Source of the DNA: a virus
Lineage: Duplodnaviria; Caudoviricetes
DNA length: 57,456 nt
Reading direction: 5' to 3' (one strand)
IMG/VR virus record: IMGVR_UViG_3300036823_000129
Location: 1 to 57,456 of that record
The translations under genes and the position numbers were made by a program. The stretch's first letter is position 1, and the number at the start of each line of letters is the position of its first letter. Below the pieces are notes generated by a model. It was not told the origin of the DNA, ran no database searches, and was given only the letters and a program-made list of their open reading frames with translations. This document shows, piece after piece, positions 9,664-57,323 of the stretch.

Positions 9664-10719
9664 GTGAGCACCGTCGAAACGACCGACTTGACGCGGAACG
9701 CGTTCGTGGAGATGCTCGCCGAACTCGGAGGGCCCGACGCGCTCCGCTACCAGTTCATGGCATCCGGCGAATACCGAGCCCACCCGATCGGCCAACTCGC
9801 GGGCCGCTACCTCGACGCCCTCACGTTCGAAGAGTACAGCCAGAGCACCATCACGAACCGCACCCAGACGCTCTCGTGGCTCACGTTCGACCATCCGACG
9901 CTTGAGCCAGCAGACATCACGTACGAGTTGCTCGTCGAGTTCCTGATGACCCATTGGAAAGACGCCGCGCCGAACACGAAGGCTCAGCACGTATCGAGCC
10001 TCAAGAACTTCTTCGAGTGGGCCTACGAGCACGACCACATCCCCTCGAACCCCGCCAAGAAGCTCAAGCCGCCACGGAAGCCAGAGACCGAGCGCCGCTC
10101 ACACTCGCACGACATCATCAAACGGCTCGTGCTCGCGCAGCCGCAGCGCCGCGACCGCGTCGCGATCCTGACGATGTACTGGTGCGCGCTCCGACGCAAC
10201 GAGCTCCGCCAGGTGCAGTTCCGCCACATCGACCTTGGCCGGCGCGTCCTCACGGTGTTCGGGAAAGGCGGCCGGGTGAACGAGCAGAACATCCCGGAGC
10301 CGTTGGCGCTCGAGCTCGAGCGGCTCATCCTCGACCGTCAGGCCGACCCGGACGAGTTCCTCCTCTACCCGCAGAAGGTCGGCCGTCGCGGCGGCTGGCC
10401 CACCTACGCCCAGGACATCATCTGGGAGAACCGTTTCGCGCCGTTGACGCAGCCAGGGATAGACAAATGGTGGCAGCGCTGCCGGGCCCGCGCCGGGCTC
10501 GGAGAGGGCGACTCGAAGGTACTGATGCACGAGCTCCGCCACACCGCCGGCACGCACGCCCAGGAGGCCGGACACGACCTCCTCGCGACCCAGGAGCTTC
10601 TCCGCCACCGCTCGGCGGCGACGACCGAACGAACGTACATCCACATCGACCGCCGGCAGGCCGTCGCACGAGTGCAACGGCAGATGACCGACCCGATGGC
10701 CGACACGGAGAACGAATAA
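9664..10719 (+). CDS. int: Tyrosine integrase (full length, with N-terminal core-binding domain)
   Basis: ALRRNE, GKGG, HELRHT, LRH, TY catalytic residues; AAGGA RBS. Confidence 0.92.
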   Translation: MSTVETTDLTRNAFVEMLAELGGPDALRYQFMASGEYRAHPIGQLAGRYLDALTFEEYSQSTITNRTQTLSWLTFDHPTLEPADITYELLVEFLMTHWKDAAPNTKAQHVSSLKNFFEWAYEHDHIPSNPAKKLKPPRKPETERRSHSHDIIKRLVLAQPQRRDRVAILTMYWCALRRNELRQVQFRHIDLGRRVLTVFGKGGRVNEQNIPEPLALELERLILDRQADPDEFLLYPQKVGRRGGWPTYAQDIIWENRFAPLTQPGIDKWWQRCRARAGLGEGDSKVLMHELRHTAGTHAQEAGHDLLATQELLRHRSAATTERTYIHIDRRQAVARVQRQMTDPMADTENE

Positions 10720-25782: not shown

Positions 25783-25826
25783 GGCGGGTTCGGGGCAAAT
25801 CCGGCTAAGGGAAAAAAGGGGATCAC

Positions 25827-29072: not shown

Positions 29073-30134
29073 TTACGTTGTGGCGGCCGTTGGTTCGACG
29101 AGCTGCGGTTCGATGATCCGCGCGGGGCGCCGGCCGCGGCGAAGGAACGGCTGCTCAACGAGGTGATACGAGATCGCGGCGGCAGCGAACGAGATTGCGA
29201 CGATGGCCCACTTCTGCTGCGTCGTTGTTTCGAGTCCGTTGCCCCAGAACCAAATGAGGATCGGCCAGTGCCAGAGGTAGAGCGAATAAGAGATCCGTCC
29301 GACGTAGACGACCGGCGCGAATGACAACGCGGCGGCGAGTCGTGACTCCTCGTCAAGTGCGCCCACGAGGACGATGACGGCGAGCAGCGCGATCAGGGTT
29401 GTGTCGAGGCGGAATGTCCAGTGTCCGGTTGGCGCGAAGATGAGCCCGAGAACCGCGAGCGCGGCAAGCGGAGCGAACGGTCGCGCGCGTCGCGCCCAGA
29501 GCGGCCGACGCTCCGCTGTCAGGAGAACTGCCGCGAGTGATCCTGCGATCAGCCCGACGCACCGAGCATCGGGGCCGTATCCGAGATCGGAAGCGGAAGC
29601 TCCCAGAAGGTCACGGATCGAGACGGCGACGAGGGCGACGCAAAGCACGATTGCAGCGAGGCCCAAGCGGCGCTTCATGACCAGCAGGAGAGCGATCGGC
29701 CAGACGAGATAGAACTGCTCCTCGGTTCCGAGCGACCAGAGATTGCGGAGACCGAACGATAGGTCGACGTGCGTCCAGGCGATCGCCGCGTTGGTCGTGA
29801 AGGTTGCGGCCGCGAGTTCGCTCAGCCCGACTGACAAACGGTGCTCTGCCGCGCCGATGACGCCGTAAACCACGAGGAGGGTGACGAGCGCAGGGAGGAT
29901 CCGACGTGCCCGCGCGACATAGAAGCCCCGCATGTTCGGGTAGTGGCTCTCTAGCAGCAACGTGGTTATGAGGAAGCCACTGAGGACGAAGAACAAATCA
30001 ACGCCGAATTGTCCGTCAGTGGGTTTGTCGAAGACGTGGTAGCCGACGACTGCGACGATCGCGACGGCGCGGATCCCGGCGAGCGGACGGCGGTAGCCAA
30101 GCGATTCCACTGTCACACGATACGACCGTTTCAA
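29073..30134 (-). CDS. Acyltransferase-3 (OafA-like) membrane O-acyltransferase
   Basis: GIRAVAI..V..YH, GVDLFFVLSGFLIT, RARRILP, LWSLG.EEQFYL.WP, GRISYSLYLWHWP, SYHLVEQP. Confidence 0.93.
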   Translation of the reverse strand: MKRSYRVTVESLGYRRPLAGIRAVAIVAVVGYHVFDKPTDGQFGVDLFFVLSGFLITTLLLESHYPNMRGFYVARARRILPALVTLLVVYGVIGAAEHRLSVGLSELAAATFTTNAAIAWTHVDLSFGLRNLWSLGTEEQFYLVWPIALLLVMKRRLGLAAIVLCVALVAVSIRDLLGASASDLGYGPDARCVGLIAGSLAAVLLTAERRPLWARRARPFAPLAALAVLGLIFAPTGHWTFRLDTTLIALLAVIVLVGALDEESRLAAALSFAPVVYVGRISYSLYLWHWPILIWFWGNGLETTTQQKWAIVAISFAAAAISYHLVEQPFLRRGRRPARIIEPQLVEPTAATT

Positions 30135-30817
30135 GCTCTTTGTGACATGGGCGCCGTGCGCGGAAGGATCCAGACTCCTGTGCGGTCACCAGGGCACGGC
30201 GCGTCGCGCGGGATTGTTCCGGCGTAGATATCGTCGATGACTGTGCTGGATTGGCTGCATCCGAAGCCGACGAGGCCTGAGCCGATGTATGTGGCGTCCG
30301 TGTCGGTGTAGCTGAGGACTTCGTTCCATCCGCTGCCCTGGTTGATCCAGAGGTCGATGGTGAAGCATCGGATCCGCATCCCGATCTTGTCGCCGCTATT
30401 CACCGTTTGTGTCGCTGACGCGATCACGACTGCGGTACCGCCGACGGACTTTTGAATCTGCCACGCTGATGCGCTGCCCGAGGTGAATCCTCCGACCGTG
30501 AGACGGTAGAGCTGGTCGTGATCTGATTGCACCCGCACGCAGAGGTCAGCCTGGTTGTCGTTGCCGCCGCTGATCGAGCCGCTCGTCGTTTTGACTGTGA
30601 CGTAGACCTCGCAGTCGGGCCCGAACTTCTGTGGTGTCCAAAACGTCTCTTCCTCGTTGATGTGGGGGTTGACGAGCGTGTTCGTTACGGCGTCGCCGAC
30701 TCTCTCGAGGACGCCGGCGAGGCCGCCGACAGGCGACCAGTTACCGCCCTCAGAGAGGGGGTTCTCGTCGGGACCGGTGAAGCTAGATAGAAGGGCTGCG
30801 TAGTCGCCGAAAGCCAT
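30131..30817 (-). CDS. Beta-sandwich (lectin-like) minor tail protein
   Basis: Beta-rich, S/T/G-rich, G.VG......DD ending; lies in the tail module. Confidence 0.6.
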   Translation of the reverse strand: MAFGDYAALLSSFTGPDENPLSEGGNWSPVGGLAGVLERVGDAVTNTLVNPHINEEETFWTPQKFGPDCEVYVTVKTTSGSISGGNDNQADLCVRVQSDHDQLYRLTVGGFTSGSASAWQIQKSVGGTAVVIASATQTVNSGDKIGMRIRCFTIDLWINQGSGWNEVLSYTDTDATYIGSGLVGFGCSQSSTVIDDIYAGTIPRDAPCPGDRTGVWILPRTAPMSQRA

Positions 30818-31683
30818 CAGGTTCCGAGGTAGTGGCCGAGCTCCACGAAGAGCGCGTCTGGCGGCATGGGTTTCTTGTCGCTAAGGCTGTTTGCGGCGTT
30901 GGAGAGGGCGCGGAGCGGTTCGACTCGGCTCGGGCGCTCCCTCCAGGCGCGTAGGAGCTCGTCGGCGCCCTCATCGAAGCTCACGTAGGTCGATAGCAGG
31001 CAGCCGAGCTGGTAGCGGCTGTAGAAGAGCTCCTCGTCCCAGCCGCCCATCCTGAGCCGGCGCCGGTACATCTCGATCGCCCGTTCCCACTGACCTGTCT
31101 CGCGAAGGGTCTGTGCGAGATAGAAGACCGAGCGGCTATCGGTCGGGTCACGTTCGACGGCCTGGTCGAGGAGCTGTAGGTAGGTGTCGGAGCGGCCTTC
31201 GCGTGTGCCTCCGTCGGCGCGGTGGGTGATCTTGAGGCTGGCGGTCGCTTCTTGGCGGAAGGGGCCGTCATGCTCGAGGTATTCGTGAACGGGCCCGATG
31301 TAGCGCCACCGGCCGTCATTTCGGATCAGCCGCGGCAGTTGGTGAATGGTTTCGCCGGTCCGGATGGTGACCATGTAGGCGTCGACGTCACCGGCGAGGT
31401 CTGGGATGTCCCCTTCGACCGTGTCGTCGGCGTCGATGATCAGCAGCCAGTCTCCACGCGAGGCGTTGAGCGCGCGGTTGCGGTTCGTGGCGAAGTCTGC
31501 CCAGTCGTGACGCTCGATCCGGCCGGGTAGATCGCCGAGCACGTACTTGGCGATCTTGCGCGTTCGGTCGGTCGAGCCGGTATCGCAGATCGTCCAGGAG
31601 TCGATAAGTGGCTTTGCCGACTGTAGGCAGCGCTCGATCACGTCGGCCTCGTTCTTGACGATCATGCAGAGTCCGACCGTCAC
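30817..31683 (-). CDS. GT2 glycosyltransferase with TPR-like repeats
   Basis: LCMIVKNE, DTGSTD, DFA.NRN.AL, IDADD, VHE; R..FYLAQT. Confidence 0.92.
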   Translation of the reverse strand: MTVGLCMIVKNEADVIERCLQSAKPLIDSWTICDTGSTDRTRKIAKYVLGDLPGRIERHDWADFATNRNRALNASRGDWLLIIDADDTVEGDIPDLAGDVDAYMVTIRTGETIHQLPRLIRNDGRWRYIGPVHEYLEHDGPFRQEATASLKITHRADGGTREGRSDTYLQLLDQAVERDPTDSRSVFYLAQTLRETGQWERAIEMYRRRLRMGGWDEELFYSRYQLGCLLSTYVSFDEGADELLRAWRERPSRVEPLRALSNAANSLSDKKPMPPDALFVELGHYLGT

Positions 31684-46317: not shown

Positions 46318-46538
46318 GACTTCCGCTCCGCCAGGAACACGACCGCGCTCACCGCGGCGCCGGCGACGATCACGCCCGCCGGCCGATAGATCATCCCCGT
46401 GCCGCCCGCGACGAGCAGCAAGCCGCCAAGGAACAGCACATCCGGCGCGAGCTTCCATGCCCAACGGCGGCCGCGCGCGAGTACCGGCGTGGTCTTCGAA
46501 CGCAGGAGCGCCAGGACAGCGAGGAGCCGCACGCTCAT
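46314..46538 (-). CDS. Small membrane protein between terminase and portal
   Basis: Two hydrophobic helices around IYRPAG; coupled on both sides. Confidence 0.7.
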   Translation of the reverse strand: MSVRLLAVLALLRSKTTPVLARGRRWAWKLAPDVLFLGGLLLVAGGTGMIYRPAGVIVAGAAVSAVVFLAERKS

Positions 46539-48028
46539 ACCCATGCCGCCAGCATTGAGGACTCGTCCTTCCCGAACTCCTCGCTCGCGACCGAGTTCAC
46601 CATCGCGCCGGCGACGAGCGCATCGATCACACGCGCTTCCTGATCGCCACCCTGCCGTGTCGAGCTCGGACGGTCAAACCGCGCGCCGCCCCCCGACAAC
46701 CCTCGCGCGATCGCGTTCAGCACATGCCGCGTCAAACCGAGATCCCCGGAATGGCGCAACCAGCCCTCACGGAGCGCCTCCATGAACCGCTCGTAATCGA
46801 GCGCCGCCATCGCGTTCCCCTGCGACCGGTCGACGACGCGGCAGCCGAGCTCGTCCTCGGCCCACCGCGCGAGCTGCTCCGCACGGGTCATGTCCATCAC
46901 GAGCGTGTGGATCGGATTCCTGGCGTGCACAGTCATCAGGGCCTTCTCGACGAGATGCGGGTCGAGCGACGTTCCGTCCCGCGGCGGCGTCAGCACCTCG
47001 GCCGGCCCGAACAGCCGATACTCGAGATCGCGCATCCACAGCGGCACAAGCGACGTCGTATCCCACTTCCATCCGACATCGAGGCCGGCCCACACCGGCT
47101 CATCCTCAGGAATCGGATCCGCGCTGAATGCGGCCGCCCATTCGATCTCCTGCACCGCGGCCGAGTCTGCGCGGGTCGCGAGGTTGCACGTGAACCGGCG
47201 CCAATGCGGCAACGTCATCGTCGCCGTTCCGCGCTTCTCCGCGAGATCGTCGACCGTGATCCCCGTGAACGGATTCGCGAGCTTCACGACGTCCATGTCC
47301 TCGACGTCGCCGTCCTCGGGCACCGCGTACTCGTGGAACGAGATCCCGTTCGAGCGGCATCGCGTGAATCCGGGCCGTCGCTCAACCACGGGGACGGTCT
47401 GCCGGATCAGCTCGCGCGTCGTCTCGAACTCGCCGCCCGGCTCGCCGGCGGTCGAGATCGTCGAGAGCTGCCCGCCGCGCTTCCCGAGCTTCCCGCGCCA
47501 TGTCCGGTAGAGCCGCAGGTCCTTGTGCCGGTGGAGCTCGTCGAGGAACGCGTCGGTCGGGATCACGCCGTCACCGGTGCCGGCGTCGGCGGCGAAGACC
47601 TGCATCCGGCCGCCCGTCTCCGTGTTCTTGATCCGCCGGTAGCCCTCCTGGCACTTGATGAACTTCTTCAGCCGCTCCGACCTGATCACGAATCCCTCGG
47701 CCTGGCGGTAGCCGATCTCGGCCTGGTCGCGTGACGACGCGGCCCATGGCACCGCGGCGAGCGGGCGGAACTCGACGATGTAGACGACCAGGCCGCCGAG
47801 GTTCGTTGTCTTCGCGTTCCCCTCGGGCACCAAAAGCCAGTTCTCGGGTACCCCGGCGAAGTAATCCTGCAGGTAGAGGAGGAAGTACGGCTCGACGATC
47901 CACGGCTCGCCGTTGTCGAGCTCGAGCTCGGCCGCCCACGTCTCGAAATGCTCGACGGTGAACGGATGCTGCTCGGTCGCGTCGGCGCGCGGCCGGCGCT
48001 TACGCGAAGTCGCCGGCGCGATCGTCAC
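46535..48028 (-). CDS. terL: Terminase large subunit
   Basis: Variant Walker A VPEGNAKTT, AASSRDQA, FLDELH, ISTAG, ANP, GLDVG...D, IDALVA..M. Confidence 0.92.
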   Translation of the reverse strand: MTIAPATSRKRRPRADATEQHPFTVEHFETWAAELELDNGEPWIVEPYFLLYLQDYFAGVPENWLLVPEGNAKTTNLGGLVVYIVEFRPLAAVPWAASSRDQAEIGYRQAEGFVIRSERLKKFIKCQEGYRRIKNTETGGRMQVFAADAGTGDGVIPTDAFLDELHRHKDLRLYRTWRGKLGKRGGQLSTISTAGEPGGEFETTRELIRQTVPVVERRPGFTRCRSNGISFHEYAVPEDGDVEDMDVVKLANPFTGITVDDLAEKRGTATMTLPHWRRFTCNLATRADSAAVQEIEWAAAFSADPIPEDEPVWAGLDVGWKWDTTSLVPLWMRDLEYRLFGPAEVLTPPRDGTSLDPHLVEKALMTVHARNPIHTLVMDMTRAEQLARWAEDELGCRVVDRSQGNAMAALDYERFMEALREGWLRHSGDLGLTRHVLNAIARGLSGGGARFDRPSSTRQGGDQEARVIDALVAGAMVNSVASEEFGKDESSMLAAWV

Positions 48029-48318
48029 GCAGGCCTTCCCTGCTGAACCGCCTGGCCGGCGCGCGCATTGCAGCTCCGATGCTCAGGCCTGCGCTCGCCG
48101 CCGGCGCCACCTTTGACGACGTCGACGACGTGGCCGGCGACGAACGGATCGTCCTCGCGCGGCCCCTCGCCGCACCGCCAACACGCGGTGGCCGACTTGG
48201 CAACGGCTCTTGCGTCGCGGTGCTCGCGTGTGTCATAGTCGCGGCGCCTCGGATGCTTCGAGCAGCGATTCCCTGAGGCAGCGATCGCACCGCACACCGA
48301 GCAGGCCCGGACGGTCAA
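48025..48318 (-). CDS. Terminase-associated HNH endonuclease
   Basis: CSVCG..RC..H, CWRCG...GHV....GG......HRSCN. Confidence 0.8.
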   Translation of the reverse strand: MTVRACSVCGAIAASGNRCSKHPRRRDYDTREHRDARAVAKSATACWRCGEGPREDDPFVAGHVVDVVKGGAGGERRPEHRSCNARAGQAVQQGRPA

Positions 48319-48566
48319 TCGGCACCATCCGAAATTTTTCTCGCGGCGATGGCGCGGAATGAAACGGCATCGCTCGATGCCATAGGTCGACCCGCCCCCC
48401 CTAGGTGCAGCTGCTGCTCCACGGCCTGCTCGAGGCCTTCCTGCTCAAGCTCGGCGGCGAGGGCTGCAACCTGGTCACGGTCGTGGTGGAGCATGGTGGC
48501 GCGGCTCGGGAGCTTCCGCAGCCAGCGGCTGTAGGCGAGCCGCTCGGCGATGGTCAAGCTGCCCAC
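48315..48566 (-). CDS. Hypothetical protein
   Basis: ORF overlaps both neighbours; its 3' part runs through the candidate cos site. Confidence 0.45.
   Translation of the reverse strand: MGSLTIAERLAYSRWLRKLPSRATMLHHDRDQVAALAAELEQEGLEQAVEQQLHLGGAGRPMASSDAVSFRAIAARKISDGAD
48328..48405 (-). other. Candidate cos/packaging site
   Basis: A G-rich run GGGGGGCGGGTCG followed by CGCCGCGAGAAAAATTTCGG next to HNH/terL, resembling cos regions of HK97-like phages. Confidence 0.4.
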
Positions 48567-49231
48567 CGTTCGAGCTGGTGGCGGCGGCGGGCCATGTAGT
48601 ACTCGGTTGCCTGGCGCTTCCGCTGTTTGTCTCGGGCGTCGTGGTCGTGGACAAGCTGGAGGTGGCTGCTCAGATCGATCGCTTCCTCGAGCGGCACATA
48701 GGCGGGGTCTCCGTGGAGCCAGCGGCCGTCGCTTGTGCGGTAGCCGTTGTGGGCGCGCTCGAGGGTGATGCCGGTGTCTGCTCGGTAGATGCGCCTGATC
48801 GGGCTCGCGGTGATGTTCGTGACCTCGATGCCGGCGCGGCGGATCTGTAGGCGCGCGACGTCGAGTTTGGTGCGGGCGAGCGCGCGGCGGATCTCGTTGC
48901 TGTTGCCGTGTTCGATGTATTCGTCGGCGTCGACGACGAGGATCCAGTCGGTTCGGCGGCCGGCTGCTTCGTGCATGAGTGCGGCGCGTTTCCCGACCTG
49001 TGTGGGCCAGATGATTCCGCCGGTGATGAGGACGTCGATGCCGACCTCGCGTGCGGCGTCCTCGATCGCCTGGGCCTGGTCGGGGTTGCTGAAGCTGGCG
49101 CCGTTGGGGAAGTGCTGCCAGGCGCCGTCGTAGGCGATGAGATTGTCGGCGATGCCGCCGAGCGAGGTGATGAGCCGCGCGAGGGTTTCGGGTGTTTCGT
49201 CGTACCAGGCGAGCGCGGCCGTGATGATCAT
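48554..49231 (-). CDS. GT-A fold glycosyltransferase-like protein
   Basis: WYDE, LIAYDGAW, Q..KR, DWILVVDADEYI. Confidence 0.75.
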   Translation of the reverse strand: MIITAALAWYDETPETLARLITSLGGIADNLIAYDGAWQHFPNGASFSNPDQAQAIEDAAREVGIDVLITGGIIWPTQVGKRAALMHEAAGRRTDWILVVDADEYIEHGNSNEIRRALARTKLDVARLQIRRAGIEVTNITASPIRRIYRADTGITLERAHNGYRTSDGRWLHGDPAYVPLEEAIDLSSHLQLVHDHDARDKQRKRQATEYYMARRRHQLERWAA

Positions 49232-49779
49232 GTTCCGACCGCCGTCTTCGCAGGGTCGATGACGCGGAACTCCCAGCCGTCGACGAATCCGAGGTGGCCG
49301 AGCTCGCGCTGCGGATGCGGATCCCACCTGATCTCCCGGCCGAACATCACGACCAGGTGCAGCCCAGGCGAGAGACCGCCATCGCAGTAGGGGCAGGCGA
49401 TCGAGGGGTCGTGCCGGATCGACGGCCCGGATTCCGGATACGTGAGGTCTGTCCTCGCGGTGCCCTTGCAATGGCTGCACCGTGTCTTGAATCGCGGTGA
49501 GCGGACACTCGCGAGCCACCAGATGTCGCCGGGCCATCCGTTGAGCACCGTCGGGTCGTCTTCGTCGAGGCTGACGTACGCGTTGCCGAGGCGAAGATTC
49601 CGGGCGGCGAGCCACTCGGCCCAGAGCTGCCACCAGTTCTCGTGCTCGACGAAATGCGGGACTTCGAGGAGCGGCAGCTCGAACAGCGACGCGACGCAGG
49701 CGCGCATGCAGTCGCCGGCCACGACCGTGTCGCCGTGCTCGTCGATCACGGAAAGCTGCCACTGCTCGACTGGCGTCAA
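49228..49779 (-). CDS. Papain-like Cys-His-Asp protein with an inserted zinc finger
   Basis: GDCMRACVASL.E....VPHF, HLVV, WDPHP; CSHCKG/CPYCDG insertion. Confidence 0.6.
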   Translation of the reverse strand: MTPVEQWQLSVIDEHGDTVVAGDCMRACVASLFELPLLEVPHFVEHENWWQLWAEWLAARNLRLGNAYVSLDEDDPTVLNGWPGDIWWLASVRSPRFKTRCSHCKGTARTDLTYPESGPSIRHDPSIACPYCDGGLSPGLHLVVMFGREIRWDPHPQRELGHLGFVDGWEFRVIDPAKTAVGT

Positions 49780-50438
49780 CGTGTCCCCTTTCTGAGGAGC
49801 TCGATCGCGGATGGGTTCGGGCTGTCGGCGGGCCAACCGAAGTACTCGACCCTCAACCCACGATCGAGGAACGGTGTTTCGTCGAGGTAGGAGCGTCCGC
49901 TCGGCCCTGACAACCAGACGTTCGCGCCGACCTCGGCGGTCATCTCGGCGAGCTGCTCCGAGATCGTCGGCATGTCGTCGCGGTCGTCTGTGACGAGCGG
50001 GCCCGAGCCGATGCCTGCTTCGAGGTCTGACTGACGCACCTCGGCGGTGTCGATCTCGAGCCGGCCGAGCAGGATCCGGTTCAAGGCGATGTTCAGCGCG
50101 GCAAGCCGACGGAACGGACGATGCAGCTCGATCGTGAACGCCTCAGCGAACTCGCGGCCGAAGCGGAGCTCGAGCGTCTTCGCGAGCTTCGTGCGCGCTC
50201 GAAAGGTCGCATCCGCGATCCTGACTGTCTGGATCGGCGCGTACCGGTCGCGGTTGTCGTAGGGCACGACGAGGGGTGTGCCGTCGGCGAGCTGCTGCCG
50301 GTTGACCCATCCGTGCCTGACCATCTGGAAGCGGTCGCAGACGATGAAGACGTCGGCTGCACGGATCTTCTCGGTGACGCTGATCGGGTAGAGCAGGTTG
50401 GGCTGGTGGCCGGTCGCGATGACGTCGCCGACGGTCAT
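49776..50438 (-). CDS. WbqC-family protein
   Basis: HQPNLL......KI.AADVFI.CD..Q.....WVNR, WLSGPSGRSYLD, SAIELL. Confidence 0.88.
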   Translation of the reverse strand: MTVGDVIATGHQPNLLYPISVTEKIRAADVFIVCDRFQMVRHGWVNRQQLADGTPLVVPYDNRDRYAPIQTVRIADATFRARTKLAKTLELRFGREFAEAFTIELHRPFRRLAALNIALNRILLGRLEIDTAEVRQSDLEAGIGSGPLVTDDRDDMPTISEQLAEMTAEVGANVWLSGPSGRSYLDETPFLDRGLRVEYFGWPADSPNPSAIELLRKGTR

Positions 50439-50797
50439 GTCGTTGAGTCCGGGAGGCGTTCGAAGACACCGTGGTCGATGTAGCCGTGCCAGCACCGTTC
50501 GTTGCGGCTGCCGATGAGGATCGAGTTCGATGAGCCGTCGTTGCGGCGGACGCTGATCGTTCCGTCGTCTTCTTCGCGGACCGTGTGCGCTTCGAGGTTG
50601 CCGAGCCCGTAAGGGCCGAATCCTTCGTCGCTCCATGGGACGGCGACCATCCAGTGCTGGCCTGTGAGGTTGGAAGCGTGCTCAGTGATTTCGCGGGGTG
50701 CGCTCCCGTCGCGGGTGAGCACTTTCCAGTAGTCGCCGGCGTGGATCTCGGCCGGGAGGTCGCCGTGCGGGGTATCGGGTCTCCGACGTCCGATCAT
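50435..50797 (-). CDS. DUF6527-like protein
   Basis: H.V.E..DGTISV...SILI.....WHGYIDHG.F. Confidence 0.6.
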   Translation of the reverse strand: MIGRRRPDTPHGDLPAEIHAGDYWKVLTRDGSAPREITEHASNLTGQHWMVAVPWSDEGFGPYGLGNLEAHTVREEDDGTISVRRNDGSSNSILIGSRNERCWHGYIDHGVFERLPDSTT

Positions 50798-51345
50798 CGG
50801 CGCATCACGAGGAGGAGGTCGTTCGAGCGGTAGCGCTCAACCGTGAAGCTTCTCGCCTCGCCGGCCGCGAACGTGGCGAGATCGGCGGGCTCGTACCGGA
50901 TGCACCGCGGATCGGTGCCGTGGTAGACGCTGACCGCCATCACACGTTCGCAGCCGTCCCAGAGACCGCGGAGCGTCTGGAACGTGAGCGCTTTCGACCA
51001 GTTGTCGGCGAGGTTGAATGTCCCGATGACCGCGACGAGGTCGAACATCCGGCCGGGCTTGACGTGGTGGAACTTCCGGTCGGGATGGGCTGCCTGGGCG
51101 CGGTTCACCATCGCGTGCGCCCAATCGCAGCCGTGGTAGGCGACGTCGTCTTCGACCCAGTCGGCGAGATCTCCGAGTCCGCAGCCGAAGTCGAGCAGCG
51201 TGTCGCCGCTTTTCGGGTCGAGTGCTTTCATGACCGCGTCGAATCGGTCGGTTTGGCCGGATGCTGTCCAGCCGACGGCTTCGAGGGGTGGCTTCGCGGC
51301 CCGGGAGCTCCACGCTGCCGGGGTGTTCGCGATCGCCTCGCTCAT
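50794..51345 (-). CDS. Class I SAM-dependent methyltransferase
   Basis: VGW....Q..RF, LLDFGCGLGD, YHGCD, FDLV..IGTFN. Confidence 0.88.
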   Translation of the reverse strand: MSEAIANTPAAWSSRAAKPPLEAVGWTASGQTDRFDAVMKALDPKSGDTLLDFGCGLGDLADWVEDDVAYHGCDWAHAMVNRAQAAHPDRKFHHVKPGRMFDLVAVIGTFNLADNWSKALTFQTLRGLWDGCERVMAVSVYHGTDPRCIRYEPADLATFAAGEARSFTVERYRSNDLLLVMRR

Positions 51346-52079
51346 TCCGGCGCCTCGTAGTAGATGCGCTTCGCTGCGATCCGGTCGGTTGTCGCCTCGA
51401 CGGAATGCCGGATCTCGATGCCCTGCACGATCGGGAGGATCGAGAGACGCTTGTTCGGGAGCTTCGTCTCGATCGACCGGAGCGCGGCCAGGGCGGCGAG
51501 CTCGAGCGGCGACATCTCGTCGGCGGCCGCGGCGAGCGCCTCGACCAGGTAGACGTGGATCGGTTTGCCGTTCTCGCGGTAGTGGCCTGGAGAGAGGCAG
51601 GTCAGCGTTGGCGACCAGCGGAACCAACGGAGCATCGGCACCGATGCGCGCACGTCGCGGTCAAGCCAGGGGGTTCGGATGGCTAGGTCGTTCGGCTTGT
51701 CGTTGTGAAGGACGATGCAGCCATGCCCAGCCGGGCAGGCCTCCTCGTCGATCGTCCCTTCCAATCGTTCGTCGGCGTCGAGGAGGATGAGGTGGTCACC
51801 TGGGCCTCCGAACGTGAGCAGGTAGTCACGTTTGGACTTATCGCCAGCCCAGAACGGATACTCGGGCTCGACATACTCGGCGCCGGCGGCCCGAGCTGCT
51901 TCGCAAGTTCCGTCGGTCGAGAGGTGCGTGGCCGCGTTCCCGAAGAGCGTCCCGTCGGGGTTGCCCCAGGCGCCGTCGACGACGACGACGCGGTCGCAGC
52001 CGGCCGCGTAGAGCGACTCGATCGCGCCAGTGATCGCGTCCTCTTCATTGAACGCCTGAATCGTGCCGATCACGCTCAC
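51342..52079 (-). CDS. GT-A fold glycosyltransferase-like protein
   Basis: AFNEE..I...IESL, VVVVDGAW, STDGT, KRD, LILLDADE; paralogous to 48554-49231. Confidence 0.82.
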   Translation of the reverse strand: MSVIGTIQAFNEEDAITGAIESLYAAGCDRVVVVDGAWGNPDGTLFGNAATHLSTDGTCEAARAAGAEYVEPEYPFWAGDKSKRDYLLTFGGPGDHLILLDADERLEGTIDEEACPAGHGCIVLHNDKPNDLAIRTPWLDRDVRASVPMLRWFRWSPTLTCLSPGHYRENGKPIHVYLVEALAAAADEMSPLELAALAALRSIETKLPNKRLSILPIVQGIEIRHSVEATTDRIAAKRIYYEAPE

Positions 52080-52294
52080 GAGATCACGACCATCTTCGTC
52101 CCGATCAGATCCGGGGTGACCTCGACCTCGGAGCCATCCACGCGCCGAACGGTGAAGATGCGGTTCCCATCATCGATACCGCCCCAGATCGGATCCTCTC
52201 CGTAGCGGACGTCGATCACCTCAGCCTCGAAGCGTGGATCGTTGCCGCGGAAGACCGCGACGCGTTCACCCACGAGATGGCGACTTACACCCAT
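52076..52294 (-). CDS. Small hypothetical protein
   Basis: Fills the operon gap with overlapping junctions. Confidence 0.55.
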   Translation of the reverse strand: MGVSRHLVGERVAVFRGNDPRFEAEVIDVRYGEDPIWGGIDDGNRIFTVRRVDGSEVEVTPDLIGTKMVVIS

Positions 52295-52797
52295 GTGAGC
52301 GCCCTCGAGCGGCAGATCGTCGGGAGCGCCTCAACCGTCGCCTCGACACCATCGTGCAGCCAGACAGGGCTACCAACCGGAAGCCGCCGCGTCGCCTCGA
52401 CGATCTCGGTCGTCGAGAGGTCGTAATCGCCGAAGCTCGGTTGCAGGTGGCACACGTGGCCCATCGCCTCGGCGATCCGGACGACGTTGCCGTCGTCCCA
52501 CCGCACGAACGGCGGCCGAAAGTCCTTGGGCCAAACACCGGTGAGGCCGAGGATCAGCGCGTCGGTCATCGCGATCTCCGTGGCGATCTCGACCGGGTTC
52601 AGCTCGACGAGCGGACGGTGCGACCACCCGTGGTTCCCGAGCGTGTGGCCCTCCACGAGGATCCGGCCGAGGAGCCGCTCCTGCCCCGCGATTCGGTCAC
52701 CAACGACGAAAAACGTGGCGCGTGTGTGGCGCTCCTTGAGGATGTCGAGGATCCGCGGCGTGGTGCTCGCGTCGGGCCCATCGTCGAACGCGATCAT
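52285..52797 (-). CDS. Polysaccharide deacetylase (NodB/CE4)
   Basis: FDDGP, ATFFVVG, GNHGWSH, FRPPF, LHDG. Confidence 0.93.
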   Translation of the reverse strand: MIAFDDGPDASTTPRILDILKERHTRATFFVVGDRIAGQERLLGRILVEGHTLGNHGWSHRPLVELNPVEIATEIAMTDALILGLTGVWPKDFRPPFVRWDDGNVVRIAEAMGHVCHLQPSFGDYDLSTTEIVEATRRLPVGSPVWLHDGVEATVEALPTICRSRALTWV

Positions 52798-53558
52798 CTG
52801 GCGCTCCGGTAGACGCGCTGCATTTCGTCGACGAACTCGGCCGGGTAGACCTCGGCGAGGTCAGACCACACCGTGGCGCTCTCGTGAGTGCCGTAGTGGA
52901 GCGAGCAGCCGGCGTAGTCGTTGAGCTGCCCGGCGCGGCTCTTGAAATCGACGAGCTGGAGCGGGTGAAGGTCGAGGTACTCGAGGCGCGGCCGGACGCC
53001 GGCGGCCATGAGCTTCCGCTGCATCGAGGTGTCCATCGCGCGGTCGCGGTCATCCTCGGCCGGGCGGCACCCGACCTTCGCGAGCATCGAGACCGGGATC
53101 GTGCGAACACCATCACCGCCGCGGTAGGTGATGTTCAGGTGCGCGAGCCGGCGGCCGTCCTCGCTCACGACGGTCGAGAGCCGTGAGCATCCGATCTCGC
53201 CTTCCCGTGGGAGCCGCGCCGCGATGAGGGCCGGGTCGACGATGTCGTCGGAGCCGAACGGCACGACGTAGTCGGCGTCGAGCTCGTTCACGGCATGCTC
53301 GATCCCGTCGTTCCATTTCCGTCCGAGCGGCTGGTTCGTCTGCGAGACATGCGCGAAGCCGAGCTCGCGGGCGAGCCGCTCGAACCTGGGTTCGTTCGAG
53401 ATGAGCACCGCGGTCGCGCCGATCGTGGCGGCGAGCTGTTCGCAGGTCCGGCTGAGCTGGCGAAGGCAAGCGGCCGCGATCTTGTGACGGCCATGGCACG
53501 GAACGACGAACACGAGCCGGCTACCCACGAGGCTCCTTGCCTTCGACGTGAAGGACAC
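52794..53558 (-). CDS. GT2-like glycosyltransferase
   Basis: VVPCHGR, NQPLGRKWNDG, YVVPFGSDD, VDFKS. Confidence 0.75.
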   Translation of the reverse strand: MSFTSKARSLVGSRLVFVVPCHGRHKIAAACLRQLSRTCEQLAATIGATAVLISNEPRFERLARELGFAHVSQTNQPLGRKWNDGIEHAVNELDADYVVPFGSDDIVDPALIAARLPREGEIGCSRLSTVVSEDGRRLAHLNITYRGGDGVRTIPVSMLAKVGCRPAEDDRDRAMDTSMQRKLMAAGVRPRLEYLDLHPLQLVDFKSRAGQLNDYAGCSLHYGTHESATVWSDLAEVYPAEFVDEMQRVYRSAR

Positions 53559-53682
53559 GCCAGCTGTTCAGCTGCTTCAACGCGGCGTCGCTTGCCTGCC
53601 GATCGTTCGCAGCGGTCTTGACATCGACGACCTTCTGCTTCCCCGAGCCGTCCTGGCAAGTGACCCGATACCCGGTCTTCAC
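53521..53682 (-). CDS. Small hypothetical protein
   Basis: GTGA-coupled; VKTGYRVTCQDG... Confidence 0.5.
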   Translation of the reverse strand: MKTGYRVTCQDGSGKQKVVDVKTAANDRQASDAALKQLNSWRVLHVEGKEPRG

Positions 53683-53933
53683 GCCGCGACGGCCCGACGG
53701 TGACGGCCGCACGTGCAGCCCGGCTCGCATCGTTTCCGCCTCCAGTCGCTCGGCCGCTGGACGGACTCGAGGTCGTGGGATCGGAGGACGCGTTCGGCGT
53801 GCCGGGCGCGTTCGATCAGCCTGGGACGCAACTGGATGAGCAGCTCTCGCCGCTCCGCCGGTGTGATATTCAGCCCCAAGAAATGCGGAAGCCCGCGCTC
53901 GGCGGGCTCGAAGGTCTTGCTCTGGGGGCGCAC
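53679..53933 (-). CDS. Hypothetical protein, likely first gene of the late transcript
   Basis: Follows a TG-c-TACTCT extended -10 (53976-53984); C-terminal CEPGCTCGRH. Confidence 0.55.
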   Translation of the reverse strand: MRPQSKTFEPAERGLPHFLGLNITPAERRELLIQLRPRLIERARHAERVLRSHDLESVQRPSDWRRKRCEPGCTCGRHRRAVAA

Positions 53934-53989
53934 CTCGCCTACCGGGGGCGGGCGGGCGTGCCCAACAACACGACGAGAGTAGCACGGCC

Positions 53990-54274
53990 TTATCCGAGCC
54001 TTCTTCGTTCACGTCGGCGCTCTCGCGCGATGGTCTCTTTCTCCGGGGCGGTGCCGTCGATCGCGCCGCCAAAACCGGTAACGGGTATGCCTCTTAGCCG
54101 GCGTTCGTCGCCGGGTGGAGCGTTCGGGTTCACGGGGAGCTCACCACCGGTTTCGACGGTGATCCGGGCGAGCTCGGCCTCCATTCGCTGGTTCTCTTGC
54201 GCGTGTTTGGCCCAGAGGATGAGGCGTTGGTCGCCGGCGGGGGGATCGTCGACGCGCGGATTCGGGCGCCTCAC
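53990..54274 (-). CDS. Hypothetical protein
   Basis: Coupled to the LuxR-type gene. Confidence 0.55.
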   Translation of the reverse strand: MRRPNPRVDDPPAGDQRLILWAKHAQENQRMEAELARITVETGGELPVNPNAPPGDERRLRGIPVTGFGGAIDGTAPEKETIARERRRERRRLG

Positions 54275-54537
54275 GCGAGCTCGTCGACGTCGAACGCGTC
54301 CTTCAGCCGCCGGCGGGCGCGGGCCATCAGGTCACGGACGTTCTTCGGATCGGTGTCGAGCGCCCTGGCGATCTTCCGGATCGGCCAGCCTCGCGCGACG
54401 AGCTGCAGCACTTCGATCTGCCGGGGTGTGCACCGCGCCTCGATCAGCGCGGCGAGTTCCGGCGACACCCCTTCCCACCTGCTCACGCGGACACCGTCGC
54501 CCGGCAGATGAACCAGAGACAGCCGAGGCGTTCGCAA
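54271..54537 (-). CDS. LuxR/sigma-region-4-type HTH regulator (candidate late activator)
   Basis: TPRQIEVLQLVARGW.IRKIARAL......VR....RARRRL. Confidence 0.82.
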   Translation of the reverse strand: MRTPRLSLVHLPGDGVRVSRWEGVSPELAALIEARCTPRQIEVLQLVARGWPIRKIARALDTDPKNVRDLMARARRRLKDAFDVDELA

Positions 54538-54550
54538 CGGCGGCAGATCC

Positions 54551-54787
54551 TCATCCTCCGGTCACCGCGAGCCTGCCCGAGCGCGCCGCCGCGTCGAAGA
54601 CGGGCTTGGCCGCATCGACGAGCGTCGCGGCGATGTGGCATACCTCGATCCGGCCCATGCGCGCGATCACGAGATGGCCGCCGCCGAGCGCTGGCCGAAC
54701 GATCACTGTCCACCCGGCTCGGCGCAGCACCCAGAGGAGCGTTTCTCCCCAGACATCTGACTGGCCGAGACGCTCGAGCTCGCCCAC
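54551..54787 (-). CDS. Hypothetical protein
   Basis: Collinear in the minus-strand operon. Confidence 0.5.
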   Translation of the reverse strand: MGELERLGQSDVWGETLLWVLRRAGWTVIVRPALGGGHLVIARMGRIEVCHIAATLVDAAKPVFDAAARSGRLAVTGG

Positions 54788-54788
54788 G

Positions 54789-55124
54789 TCACCGGTCGCC
54801 CGGCGGCGTCACTTGCCAGCCGTGGTCGATCAGGGCGTGCGCGAACGAGGCTTGTGTTTCGTCGTCGAGTCGGAGGGCCTCAACGGTGGCATCGACGCAG
54901 AAGAGCTCGATGTTCGCCCGGCTGAGCTCCCCGACCATCATCGTGACGGTCATGCTCCGGACAGAGCGGCGGACGTCGAGCCAGCTGCCGTCGTCCTTCC
55001 GGAGGAAGAAGATCCCGACGTTCCGAACGATGTTCTCGCTCGACTCGATCCGAACAAGGTTCCGCTTCCGATTCGCTGGAGCCGCCGTCGGCGCGGGCCG
55101 CCGCGCCCGGAACCAGCGTTTCAC
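54789..55124 (-). CDS. Hypothetical protein
   Basis: GTGA-coupled, protein-like composition. Confidence 0.55.
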   Translation of the reverse strand: MKRWFRARRPAPTAAPANRKRNLVRIESSENIVRNVGIFFLRKDDGSWLDVRRSVRSMTVTMMVGELSRANIELFCVDATVEALRLDDETQASFAHALIDHGWQVTPPGDR

Positions 55125-55414
55125 TTCGAGTCCAGGATCGTCGCCGACCGGATCATCCTCGACCGATCGTCGAACGCATCCCACGCCTTCTGCCGGCGCT
55201 TCTTCATCTCCCGCTGCAGCCGCTCGATCTGCGGTTTCAGATCCTCGGCGATCGTCTGCAACTCACGATCGAGAACGGTGCGGGCCTGGCGGAGCGCGAC
55301 GCGCTGCTCCGACGTCGCCCGCCGGGCGGGACGAGCTTTCTTCTCGGCGGCTTCCTTTTGCCGCGGCGCCTGGTTTCGCTGCGACCGCGCGCGGGAATCG
55401 AAATGACTGGGCAA
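55121..55414 (-). CDS. Basic coiled-coil protein
   Basis: GGAGGT RBS before TTG 55414. Confidence 0.6.
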   Translation of the reverse strand: MPSHFDSRARSQRNQAPRQKEAAEKKARPARRATSEQRVALRQARTVLDRELQTIAEDLKPQIERLQREMKKRRQKAWDAFDDRSRMIRSATILDSK

Positions 55415-55483
55415 GGCGCACCTCCAGATGAGACGGGACCTCATTTGGTGTGCGCCACCCTGCTCGCGGCAGGCCCGAAGCGC

Positions 55484-55756
55484 TCAAGCGGATCGTATCC
55501 GCTGCTCGTTGACAGCGTCTACGACCGCCGGCTCCAGAACATCCCAACCACCCGGACCCCAACTGGGATGTCGGCCGGCTCGACCTTCTCGCACATGAAG
55601 TGAAAGATCTCTGGCCGGCCGGTCTCCTCGACACCAGTCACGTGGTAGCCAGATCCGGCGTCGGTCACGAGGTACATCCCGAGCTCCGGTTGCTCGTTGC
55701 CGCTCCAGGTGAACCGACGCAGCCACACAACGGATCCGGACTGGCTTTCCGCGCAC
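55484..55756 (-). CDS. Hypothetical protein
   Basis: Abuts the recombinase stop codon; GAGGT RBS. Confidence 0.6.
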   Translation of the reverse strand: MRGKPVRIRCVAASVHLERQRATGARDVPRDRRRIWLPRDWCRGDRPARDLSLHVREGRAGRHPSWGPGGWDVLEPAVVDAVNEQRIRSA

Positions 55757-56320: not shown

Positions 56321-56338
56321 CGGCAGTCCTTGGAGAGG

Positions 56339-57283: not shown

Positions 57284-57323
57284 ATTGTGCAGGACACTAC
57301 GGCTACTTGCAGATGTTTAGAGC
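57081..57323. repeat. Direct repeat block B, copy 2
   Basis: Matches 643-885. Confidence 0.97.

Follow-up and report, generated by a model that had tools for sequence, protein, structure and literature searches.

Introduction

Virion glycosylation in mycobacteriophages, including Che8, Rita and others, was reportedly described by Freeman et al. in 2023. According to the account in PMC11256854 (citing Freeman 2023), the capsid glycans of Che8 and Rita form a shield, and the Cluster J glycosyltransferases are placed between capsid and connector genes in PMC3706429. Phage DNA sugar hypermodification clusters combine a C5-MTase or ThyS with 5mYOX/TET and a GT, often with ParB, and their products include HexNAc-containing glycans, as stated in bioRxiv 10.1101/2023.12.21.572611. 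In the synthesis of bacillithiol (BshA/BshB/BshC, with NmbA for the N-methyl form) and mycothiol (MshA/MshB/MshC), GlcNAc transfer is followed by de-N-acetylation, ligation of an amino acid to the amine, and optional N-methylation. Nod-factor core synthesis employs NodC (GT2), NodB (CE4 de-N-acetylase), NodS (N-methyltransferase) and NodA (N-acyltransferase). Here we compare with these systems a gene cluster of an uncultured soil phage; our best reading of it is tailored glycosylation of the phage's own virion proteins, to which we give about an even chance of being correct.

Results

The window, i.e., the whole stretch of 57,456 nucleotides that was analysed, may be incomplete (CheckV completeness estimate, 54%), and the phage probably infects an actinobacterium of the Thermoleophilia rather than Mycobacterium. 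Using ORF calls and an independent GC3-based caller, we placed every cluster gene on the minus strand; for g1, the start is a GTG behind an AAGGAG site, and the longest ORF extends to 53558. The cluster (48554-53558) consists of nine genes, g1-g9, which lead through the small ORF g10 and an HNH gene to TerL (Table 1). The earlier note had described an overlapping chain running into HNH-terL, and indeed all 12 successive junctions from the ORF upstream of g1 to TerL are start/stop overlaps of 4 to 10 nt. At ten of them the overlap is ATGA, GTGA or TTGA; the longer ones are found at the upstream ORF/g1 (8 nt) and g2/g3 (10 nt) junctions. The g10 protein, with no credible family match in Pfam or NCBIfam, has a TTGA overlap at either side of its gene, and the overlaps of the HNH gene are TTGA and GTGA.

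Table 1. Positions of the cluster genes and other features in the window
Feature	Position	Strand	Description
g1	52794..53528	-	GT-A (GT2-like) glycosyltransferase, 244 aa; fold-based
g2	52285..52797	-	predicted minimal cytoplasmic CE4 (NodB-type) de-N-acetylase, 170 aa
g3	52076..52294	-	72-aa protein, function unknown
g4	51342..52079	-	probable GT-A glycosyltransferase, 245 aa; weakly supported
g5	50794..51345	-	predicted class I SAM-dependent methyltransferase, 183 aa; conserved WbqC partner
g6	50435..50797	-	120-aa phage protein, possibly BubE/DUF6527-like
g7	49776..50438	-	WbqC-family protein, 220 aa; predicted BshC-like, class I aaRS-fold adenylate-forming ligase
g8	49228..49779	-	183-aa phage protein; phrog_5845 E 2e-17
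g9	48554..49231	-	GT-A glycosyltransferase, 225 aa; phrog_7009 E 7e-17
g10	48315..48557	-	80-aa protein, function unknown; connects cluster with HNH
HNH endonuclease	48025..48318	-	97 aa; phrog_338 E 1e-4
Large terminase subunit (TerL)	46535..48028	-	497 aa; phrog_9 E 4.5e-52; PF03354
GT2-TPR glycosyltransferase, GmaR/SunS-like	30817..31683	-	288 aa; PF00535 plus TPR
Acyl_transf_3 O-acetylase-like protein	29073..30110	-	membrane protein; adjoins GT2-TPR
Integrase	9664..10719		

No 19-residue stretch in g1-g10 exceeds 1.35 on the Kyte-Doolittle scale and neither a membrane segment nor a signal-like N-terminus was found in these proteins; thus, none of them appears membrane-bound or secreted, in agreement with the lack of signal peptides noted before. 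Pfam scans and hydrophobicity also revealed no flippase and no polyprenyl-phosphate transferase in the cluster. These results argue against the possibility that the enzymes alter a host glycopolymer or lipid-linked glycan (e.g., in receptor masking or superinfection exclusion) and not the virion, as do the coupling to packaging genes, the position of the relatives' genes between capsid and adaptor genes, and a location that is neither near the integrase nor a moron position. Conversely, the phage is temperate, as indicated by its integrase; the membrane O-acetylase-like protein is encoded on the same strand as the adjoining GT2-TPR; the CE4 enzymes nearest to g2 act on peptidoglycan GlcNAc; and WbqC is, by its Pfam family name, a protein of O-antigen loci. 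On balance, modification of the host envelope is unlikely.

The structure and profile searches suggested in the earlier note were carried out, and its list of enzymes (a GT-A fold in g1, CE4, a class I SAM methyltransferase, WbqC and the g9 glycosyltransferase) was confirmed. For g1, the Pfam GT2 match is sub-threshold (E 0.047); however, the AF2 model (pLDDT 94.6) matches GT-A/GT2 enzymes of the PDB with a Foldseek probability of 1.00 (6p61, E 7e-9), with SpsA, TarP, GlfT2 and chondroitin synthases among the other matches, and the family profile matches 3bcv, a putative glycosyltransferase (E 6e-5). Residues G92 and D94 are invariant, and the predicted fold confirms g1 as a GT-A glycosyltransferase. 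Neither the g1 family nor WbqC has a match among 50,697 cultured phage records. A second glycosyltransferase is confirmed in g9, which shares ~31% identity with the glycosyltransferases of 52 Cluster J mycobacteriophage records, LittleE gp21 among them; the GT-A label of g4 is weak. The latter has no match in Pfam, PHROG or NCBIfam and is tentatively labelled GT-A only because of its resemblance to g9 (29% identity over 83 residues, E 1e-5, with a common hhDADE stretch).

Another glycosyltransferase, GT2-TPR, is encoded outside the cluster; in relatives, it is part of this gene set. Its best PDB sequence matches, GmaR (22ao, E 1.6e-17) and SunS (7msp, E 3e-10), are solved enzymes that glycosylate proteins or peptides. 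Three comparison sets were used: 35 related loci, 14 close loci among viruses, and 19 distant viral loci. GT2-TPR is carried by the window and by 7/14 close loci; homologues with 35-38% identity adjoin the methyltransferase-WbqC pair or a head-tail adaptor gene in five (L009, L011, L013, L014, L015), and a similar one in L016 is cut by the locus end. It was not found in the whole records of five relatives.

The g2 protein matches CE4 (PF01522, E 3e-26) and, in NCBIfam, PgdA (1e-24) and NodB (6e-23), both under the equivalog cut-offs (for NodB, 81 bits against 240). It aligns to Streptococcus pneumoniae PgdA (2c1g, E 8e-22) with four motif stretches kept (FDDGP, HGWSH, RPPF and WLHD), and its assignment as a complete CE4 de-N-acetylase is confirmed at the sequence level. 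No CE4 homologue of g2 was detected in any of the 35 related loci. A recognisable deacetylase of any kind is present in the whole records of two of ten close relatives, a PIG-L-like gene replacing the CE4 position in two close relatives, and none was recognised in the complete 43-kb genome G007, suggesting that the deacetylation step is not universal in the clade. In the distant loci, PIG-L is among the eight ORFs nearest to WbqC in 10/19 cases and directly abuts it in seven.

Pfam methyltransferase matches of g5 are sub-threshold; a search of the PDB with the family profile retrieves class I SAM methyltransferases (best E 1.3e-8), and the GxGxG motif shows no variation, which confirms g5, as judged from these profiles, as a class I SAM methyltransferase. 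The g7 protein scores 68.5 bits against PF08889 (cut-off 21.3). In VIA-align, its AF2 model (pLDDT 91.9) is most similar to BshC 4wbd (Z 12.1, rmsd 3.6, 206/220 residues aligned), followed by LysRS-I (Z 11.3) and then TyrRS, GluRS, GlnRS, CysRS, MshC (Z 6.7) and PanC. Foldseek against the PDB gives BshC 4wbd with a probability of 0.95 (E 0.019, TM 0.43) and no match at E 0.001 or better, and by sequence g7 matches no PDB chain, BshC included. A new observation is that the structures most similar to the model of this WbqC protein are BshC and class I aminoacyl-tRNA synthetases. It should be noted that the BshC-catalysed reaction itself has, according to PMC5790435, never been reconstituted, and that the link of WbqC to glycyl transfer cited in the earlier note was not traced in the literature searched.

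Because of this resemblance, the gene set appears to mirror the logic of bacillithiol, mycothiol and Nod-factor synthesis, i.e., add HexNAc, deacetylate, N-acylate, methylate. The pathway proposed earlier, with N-aminoacylation as its third step, is supported independently by the g7 model, and also by the deacetylases near WbqC in distant loci; its deacetylase step is at odds with the scarcity of such genes in related loci and close relatives. A soluble product, such as a bacillithiol/mycothiol-like aminoacyl-glucosaminide or a Nod-factor-like oligosaccharide serving as an infection metabolite or signal, would share this logic: the cytoplasmic CE4 with GT2 and SAM methyltransferase recalls NodC/NodB/NodS, in line with the NodB model match. 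The order glycosyltransferase, deacetylase, BshC-like ligase, methyltransferase is also that of N-methyl-bacillithiol as presented in PMC5790435 and PMC6282198. However, each phage has three to five glycosyltransferases, which suggests that an oligosaccharide is built on a macromolecule; the repeat domain of GT2-TPR is of a protein-binding type and its relatives glycosylate proteins; and a metabolite role leaves the constant structural-gene placement unexplained. All this makes a small-molecule product very unlikely.

A neighbourhood survey, also suggested in the earlier note, revealed a conserved core of methyltransferase, WbqC and glycosyltransferase, to which CE4, g3, g6 and g8 do not belong. 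In all 14 close loci, a g5-type methyltransferase gene lies at most 2 kb upstream of WbqC (the two abut in nine) and at least one glycosyltransferase is present. Homologues of g1 occur in 11/14 close loci, those of g9 in L007, L008, L010 and L016, and a 43% identical homologue of g4 in L004. The module is found alongside three unrelated capsid families, and 12/14 close loci lie among TerL, portal, capsid, connector/adaptor or tail genes; in L004 it follows replication genes.

The coupling to HNH-TerL would also fit DNA hypermodification, in which an amino sugar is attached to a modified phage base before or during packaging and then tailored. Two methyltransferases, a 678-aa C5 cytosine enzyme and a Dam-like one, are encoded in the window, a C5 DNA methyltransferase gene abuts WbqC in L007, and TAGT and ParB_N occur in 2/19 and 1/19 distant WbqC loci, respectively; GT-A folds are also known among the phage DNA glycosyltransferases described in print, in some cases beside terminase (bioRxiv 10.1101/2023.12.21.572611). 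Nevertheless, a ThyS-like hydroxymethylase and ParB_N are absent from the window and from the records of four relatives (one complete, one ~90% complete), in searches whose positive controls worked. TAGT and Tet_JBP have no match in Pfam scans of the window proteins, and a six-frame search for Tet_JBP, run without a positive control, was blank. In the same preprint, ~65% of GT-containing phage contigs have no base-modifying neighbour, and an action on DNA is judged less likely for them. Together with the similarity of GT2-TPR to protein and peptide glycosyltransferases, this makes DNA a quite unlikely target.

The g3, g6 and g8 proteins have no homologue in any of the 35 related loci, suggesting that they are probably outside the pathway and represent unrelated insertions. 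For g3, no family match was obtained in Pfam, PHROG or NCBIfam; this gene was missing from the gene list of the earlier note. The DUF6527-like label of g6 is a lead from Atlas features (score 0.93 to clusters of which 11-35% carry PF20137), with no Pfam match even at E 5. The papain-like Cys-His-Asp description of g8 stands for the residues, Cys24, His141 and Asp153 being invariant in 14/14 aligned homologues while the zinc ribbon is variable; its fold may be papain/C39-like, a weak lead, with relatives in phages of Arthrobacter, Pseudomonas and Yersinia, including a protein annotated as a C39 peptidase.

Discussion

Most likely, the cluster forms a cytoplasmic module, expressed late, by which a glycan is built and tailored on virion proteins. 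The virion target, already favoured in the earlier note, is supported because 12/14 close loci sit among structural and packaging genes and because the window encodes a GmaR/SunS-like GT2-TPR; the similarity of g9 to Cluster J enzymes encoded between capsid and connector genes also speaks for it. Against it, the capsid and tail-tube C-termini of the window and relatives have no obvious Ser/Thr-rich tails. We infer the target, the substrates and the following order of steps: (i) a GT-A enzyme, GT2-TPR or g1, would use a nucleotide sugar to attach HexNAc to Ser/Thr residues in a protein of the capsid or tail; (ii) the CE4 enzyme g2 would remove the N-acetyl group; (iii) g7, with its predicted BshC-like class I aaRS fold, would activate a carboxylate with ATP, most likely that of an amino acid, and ligate it to the freed amine; (iv) g5, the constant partner of g7, would methylate the product; (v) g1, g4 and g9 would add further sugars.

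As in DNA hypermodification clusters, GT-A enzymes related to cell-envelope glycosyltransferases are involved, sometimes near terminase (bioRxiv 10.1101/2023.12.21.572611), whereas ThyS-like, ParB_N and TAGT genes were not found here and the relatives' module lies between capsid and adaptor genes. The order of chemistry resembles that of bacillithiol and mycothiol, and the PIG-L deacetylases beside WbqC in many viral loci are of the BshB/MshB family. However, the glycosyltransferases are GT-A and not GT4/GT-B, with several extra ones, the deacetylase in the window is of the CE4 rather than the PIG-L type, g7 is a PF08889 member, and a macromolecule is the probable acceptor. In Nod-factor synthesis, too, a signal-less cytoplasmic CE4 works alongside a GT2-type enzyme and a SAM methyltransferase, and the freed amine is then N-acylated; here, g2 scores far under the NodB equivalog cut-off, and there is no NodA homologue, so that acylation would fall to the WbqC/BshC-like ligase.

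The annotated LittleE island and the Cluster J account in PMC3706429 mention no deacetylase or WbqC, and the mycobacteriophage systems differ in their host. Conversely, in both cases actinobacterial siphophages carry soluble GT-A enzymes and SAM methyltransferases within their structural genes or next to them. If our reading is true, this phage particle carries a tailored sugar coat, so far shown only for mycobacterial phages and in simpler form.

Results

Gene assignments within the cluster

The minus-strand cluster is filled by nine genes (g1-g9), followed by an 80-aa ORF (g10), an HNH gene and the terminase gene TerL. Start/stop overlaps of 4-10 nt were found at all 12 successive junctions from a small ORF upstream of g1 to TerL, which bears out the operon that had been noticed from the sequence alone, and a GC3-based gene caller agreed on the starts of g5, g7, g8 and g9. 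No hydrophobic segment was detected in g1-g10, consistent with the earlier statement that none of the proteins shows a signal peptide.

Firm and weak assignments are distinguished in the table. For g1, Foldseek matches to many GT-A enzymes (E 7e-9 and weaker) indicate the GT-A fold, and an acidic DxD-type motif follows strand 4 (G92 and D94 invariant among 14 family members); the Pfam GT2 score is under the cut-off. The g2 protein scores 92.2 bits against PF01522 (gathering cut-off 23.1) and is a member of this family; its motifs FDDGP, HGWSH, RPPF and WLHD line up with the matching stretches of PgdA entry 2c1g, and the first motif Asp pairs with the residue altered in the PgdA mutant entry 2c1i. 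Asp-Asp, His-x-x-x-His, Arg-Pro-Pro and Leu/Trp-x-His are the catalytic and metal-binding motifs of CE4 enzymes. In g5, the SAM-binding motif residues D52, G54, C55, G56 and G58 are invariant and agree with the family match, the single-sequence Pfam score being under the cut-off (27.7 versus 30), and the PF08889 result for g7 was repeated by a six-frame search.

For g4, there was no match in Pfam, PHROG or NCBIfam. The g6 lead consists of Atlas features at 0.93 to clusters, 11-35% of them with PF20137, and a structural row with TM 0.59; hmmscan of g6 against Pfam gave nothing at E 5. No Pfam match was obtained for g8, and its C39 leads are limited to one phage annotation and an entry ranked 30 in the Atlas list. 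Searches of the g8 and g1 sequences against PDB chains returned nothing useful. The families of g6 and g8 are both found widely among phages and have no relation to the glycan module; any connection of a g8 peptidase and an E2-like g6 protein with ubiquitin-like antiphage systems is pure speculation.

Features with coordinates, assignments and supporting detail; coordinates are those of the window unless a related locus is named
Feature	Coordinates (strand)	Assignment	Detail
Near-repeat of window ends	1-885 and 56339-57323		mosaic; ~240 + ~265 bases ~94% identical, middle divergent
Tyrosine recombinase	9664-10719	full-length	351 aa
Two DNA methyltransferase genes	14427-18285 (+)	C5 cytosine, then Dam-type	678 aa, only its two ends match methylase models; next gene 490 aa with N-terminal phrog_24928 domain
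Toxin gene and next gene	25420-26150 (+)	Gp49/HigB-like toxin, then HTH antitoxin-like	
Gene array	27123-57283 (-)		single, long
Group at end of tail genes	29073-31683 (-)	next three rows	just before endolysin
Acyl_transf_3 protein	29073-30110 (-)	O-acetylase-like	membrane
Unknown protein	30131-30817 (-)		228 aa
GT2-TPR	30817-31683 (-)	GmaR/SunS-like glycosyltransferase	
Laminin_G_3 tail protein	31680-32465		beside the GT2-TPR/acyltransferase group
Protease-capsid	41971-44871 (-)	head-maturation protease and major capsid	one 966-aa ORF; residues 3-286 (phrog_53) and 474-962 (phrog_10)
Cluster g1-g9	48554-53558 (-)		
g1		GT-A glycosyltransferase, firm	AF2 pLDDT 94.6; Foldseek probability 1.00 to SpsA, TarP, GlfT2, chondroitin synthases
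g2		CE4 de-N-acetylase, firm	PF01522 E 3e-26; motif stretches align with pneumococcal PgdA
g4		GT-A, weak	pairwise similarity to g9 (E 1e-5) is the one piece of evidence
g5		class I SAM methyltransferase, firm	family profile against PDB E 1.3e-8; GxGxG invariant
g6		BubE/DUF6527-like, weak	Atlas lead only
g7		WbqC, firm	PF08889 68.5 bits, cut-off 21.3
g8		papain-like, putative fold, weak	Cys24, His141, Asp153 invariant in 14/14 homologues
g9		glycosyltransferase, firm	phrog_7009 E 7e-17
HTH protein	54271-54537 (-)	sigma-70 region 4 / LuxR-type	88 aa, few genes upstream of cluster
Second tyrosine recombinase	55757-56320	catalytic domain only	187 aa, just upstream of late genes
Fused glycosyltransferases, L009	5146-6714	two g1-type enzymes	522-aa ORF
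Extended GT2-TPR, L013	5942-7489	GT2-TPR with second GT-A-like C-terminal domain	515 aa; acidic motif, judged by eye
WbqC locus, L034	5982-11465		
WbqC locus, L037	4515-10188		

Predicted structural similarity of WbqC to BshC

In an exhaustive VIA-align comparison, the AF2 model of the WbqC protein g7 (pLDDT 91.9, 26 sequences in the alignment) was nearest to BshC of B. subtilis (4wbd_A; Z 12.1, rmsd 3.6 Å, 206 of 220 residues aligned), followed by class I LysRS (Z 11.3), by TyrRS, GluRS and GlnRS (Z 8-9) and, at lower ranks, by CysRS, pantothenate synthetase and MshC (Z 6.7-7.7). All nine chains with Z of at least 8 have the Rossmann-type nucleotidyl-transferase fold, which is the fold that the model predicts for g7. 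Foldseek placed BshC third (probability 0.95, E only 0.019) and gave no PDB match at E 0.001; the WbqC profile found nothing at E 1 among PDB sequences. Two groups of residues are invariant, His11-Gln12-x-Asn14 following strand 1 and, past the last strand, a Gly-rich loop (176-187), and in the model they appear to occupy the positions of HIGH and KMSKS, the ATP-binding signatures of class I synthetases.

Relatives and the conserved core

The WbqC family comprises 10,870 representative clusters in a profile search, and 68 near-length homologues were found in a collection of 5.8 billion proteins. Scanning IMG/VR viral contigs with a single WbqC sequence detected no relatives; an alignment-based scan detected 35 viral loci, none of which contains homologues of g2 (CE4), g3, g6, g8 or g10. 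The DNA of positions 48000-54000 matched no cultured phage. Neither the WbqC nor the g1 protein matched any of 50,697 cultured phage records, and the tailoring pair is absent from all the records so searched. Among the matches listed for the WbqC literature, the titles and opening lines of abstracts describe neither this pair in phages nor any work on phages or biochemistry.

Fourteen of the viral loci (L003-L016, G+C 60-70%) are close relatives; it should be noted that L012 duplicates L011, and L014 is a near-duplicate of L013. In all 14, the strand that encodes WbqC also encodes a g5-type methyltransferase, at most 2 kb upstream of WbqC (adjoining it in nine), and each locus has at least one glycosyltransferase: g1-type enzymes occur in 11, often as two copies, GT2-TPR in seven, and g9- or g4-type enzymes in five. 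Twelve loci are placed among TerL, portal, protease, capsid, head-tail adaptor or tail genes, with the module usually directly behind the capsid gene and ahead of the adaptor, and the capsid genes beside it represent three unrelated families. The module of L004 is behind replication genes at the contig end, and the surroundings of L007 are mixed. The gene content and positions of these relatives point to a conserved, mobile core, made of the methyltransferase-WbqC pair and GT-A enzymes, that would move within the structural gene block.

Rosetta stone analysis identified no WbqC fusions among the close relatives. Long WbqC forms, six from 150 listed profile-search proteins and two from viral loci (one sequence shared), were rejected as informative fusions, as they contain only tandem WbqC or unassigned extensions. 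Two composite glycosyltransferase ORFs, of L009 and L013, are included in the table.

The proposed deacetylase step

In addition, we scanned 19 distant viral loci, mostly of low G+C, using up to eight ORFs nearest WbqC and a threshold of E 1e-5 or better; we left out L027 and L030, judging from the gene maps that both are near-duplicates of L025. PIG-L de-N-acetylase is found in 10 of the 19 and adjoins WbqC in seven; methyltransferases are found in six, TAGT in two and ParB_N in one, and nucleotide-sugar genes are common. Two large low-G+C phages have WbqC among radical SAM/B12 enzymes (L037) and among NeuB-type nonulosonate synthases together with PIG-L (L034); therefore, several different types of sugar pathway have recruited WbqC.

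In L005 and L007, two of the close relatives, the module includes a PIG-L-like gene where the window has the unrelated CE4, and this non-homologous replacement argues for the deacetylase being a real functional slot. When the whole records of 10 close relatives were searched, only two proved to have a recognisable deacetylase, and the complete 43-kb genome G007 has none; a CE4 match in G002, at 17 bits and on the strand opposite a glycosyltransferase gene, was judged spurious. These counts indicate that deacetylation would be either not obligatory or otherwise supplied in much of the close clade.

The earlier note had proposed a full pathway in which HexNAc is added, de-N-acetylated, N-aminoacylated and methylated. 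The logic of this pathway gains strength from the BshC-like fold and from the repeated pairing of a deacetylase with WbqC, whereas the membership of g6 and g8 is unsupported. As for the link of WbqC to glycyl transfer, no supporting paper was found among the matches listed for the O-antigen literature.

Possible targets of the proposed modification

Glycosylation of virion proteins with a tailored amino sugar is our preferred reading, one that we hold to be about equally likely to prove right or wrong. By gene position, the phage glycosyltransferases would be expressed with structural genes, as in Che8 and Corndog, given the overlapping junctions into HNH-TerL and the 12 of 14 related loci in the structural block. 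We also count for this target the separate GT2-TPR enzyme, for which the best matches among solved structures are GmaR (E 1.6e-17) and two peptide glycosyltransferases, SunS and 7msk. GmaR O-GlcNAcylates Listeria flagellin. GT2-TPR homologues are directly ahead of the methyltransferase-WbqC pair in L013-L015 and ahead of the adaptor gene in L009 and L011, a placement that is likewise suggestive. By analogy, virion proteins are also suggested by the kinship of g9 with the glycosyltransferases of Cluster J mycobacteriophages, described as having an island of 8-10 glycosyltransferase and methyltransferase genes between capsid and connector genes (PMC3706429), and by the capsid glycans reported for related mycobacteriophages (PMC11256854, citing Freeman 2023). 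Inspection of the capsid and tail-tube proteins for Ser/Thr-rich C-terminal tails revealed nothing clear.

Given the Acyl_transf_3 protein encoded near GT2-TPR, the phage may also O-acetylate an envelope or a glycan. That the enzymes act on the host envelope we consider unlikely.

Sugar hypermodification of DNA is a slightly weaker candidate again. Published DNA-glycosylating phage enzymes are reported to include GT-A folds and may neighbour terminase genes (bioRxiv 10.1101/2023.12.21.572611), and the window encodes a large C5 methyltransferase. However, six-frame searches of five records (the window, G003, ~90% complete, the complete G007 and two further relatives) detected neither the base-activating ThyS-like enzyme (PF00303) nor ParB_N (PF02195) in any of them, with positive controls matched in both cases, and Pfam scans of the window's proteins gave no TAGT or Tet_JBP match. 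In these searches, neither the ThyS-like base-activating enzyme nor the ParB-like partner or TAGT-type glycosyltransferase of hypermodification clusters was found. In the six-frame search for the other type of base-activating enzyme, 5mYOX/TET (Tet_JBP, PF12851), there was no match in the five records, and none in the positive controls either. In the same preprint, glycosyltransferase contigs that have no base-modifying neighbour (~65%) are judged less likely to act on DNA (bioRxiv 10.1101/2023.12.21.572611).

Gene layout and probable host

The window, a virus record of IMG/VR, is 57,456 bases long and classed as linear, with a G+C of ~67% and an estimated CheckV completeness of ~54%. This estimate is at odds with the near-repeat of its ends, by which the contig may wrap a complete ~56 kb genome or join two strain variants. 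The minus-strand array runs from small regulators through g1-g9 to HNH, TerL, portal and the fused protease-capsid gene, then to connector/tail genes (the major tail protein at 39707-40120), GT2-TPR with the membrane acyltransferase, and endolysin; the plus-strand half contains the integrase, recombination/replication genes and two DNA methyltransferases. The HTH protein encoded upstream of the cluster is a candidate late-gene activator. No sigma-70-like promoter or terminator was found on the coding strand of 46000-57456, in a scan that is uninformative for this organism. Among listed sequencing data sets, a single DNA set, perhaps that of the source sample, and no RNA set contains the stretch.

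Over its final 15.7 kb the window matches, at 100% identity, a contig assigned by binning to a Gaiellaceae MAG, and a Solirubrobacterales MAG carries a WbqC 55% identical to g7; a scan of genome contigs with the closer WbqC alignment produced two loci in all, of which one is DNA of the window itself within a MAG. A Thermoleophilia actinobacterium is therefore the probable host, MAG binning being weak evidence.

Discussion

To our knowledge, phage virion glycosylation has been recognised only recently and only with the plain glycosyltransferase and methyltransferase sets of mycobacteriophages, where it shields particles from antibodies. We tentatively propose, as a possibility that we rate well short of even, that phages of soil Thermoleophilia cover the capsid or tail with a glucosamine glycan that is both aminoacylated and methylated, that a portable methyltransferase-WbqC-glycosyltransferase cassette has moved between unrelated head-gene modules, and that WbqC proteins are BshC-like amino acid:amino-sugar ligases. 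If true, it would add a post-translational modification that has yet to be described in a virus and would carry virion glycosylation to a distant, uncultured actinobacterial lineage. A cassette that de-acetylates and re-acylates an amino sugar would give the particle a surface of different charge and chemistry, with possible consequences for how the phage adsorbs, how stable it is in soil and how host defences recognise it. The tailoring pair may also serve more than one target. The ligase role, if true, would be the first biochemical assignment of the WbqC family; the link to the BshC fold offers a testable function for this widespread uncharacterised family, present also in O-antigen loci.

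BshC is described as the enzyme that, on genetic grounds, adds cysteine in bacillithiol synthesis; a glycosyltransferase and a deacetylase act before it, GlcN-malate is its substrate, and its reaction was never reconstituted (PMC5790435). WbqC ligases would, if confirmed, be a tractable model for this reaction. N-methylated bacillithiol, made by an additional methyltransferase, is also reported (PMC6282198). With the BshC-like fold of g7, the window's set therefore repeats a known chemical order, namely glycosyltransferase, de-N-acetylase, BshC-like protein and methyltransferase, although the protein families differ. That the enzymes make a soluble product is improbable, more so than either action on the envelope or action on DNA. 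A second parallel is Nod-factor synthesis, which employs a GT2 enzyme, a cytoplasmic CE4, an N-methyltransferase and N-acylation; g2 matches the NodB model at E 6e-23, under the cut-off of that model. In kind, the preferred system, modification of virion proteins, is a phage glycosylation island, and the tailoring pair is what differs.
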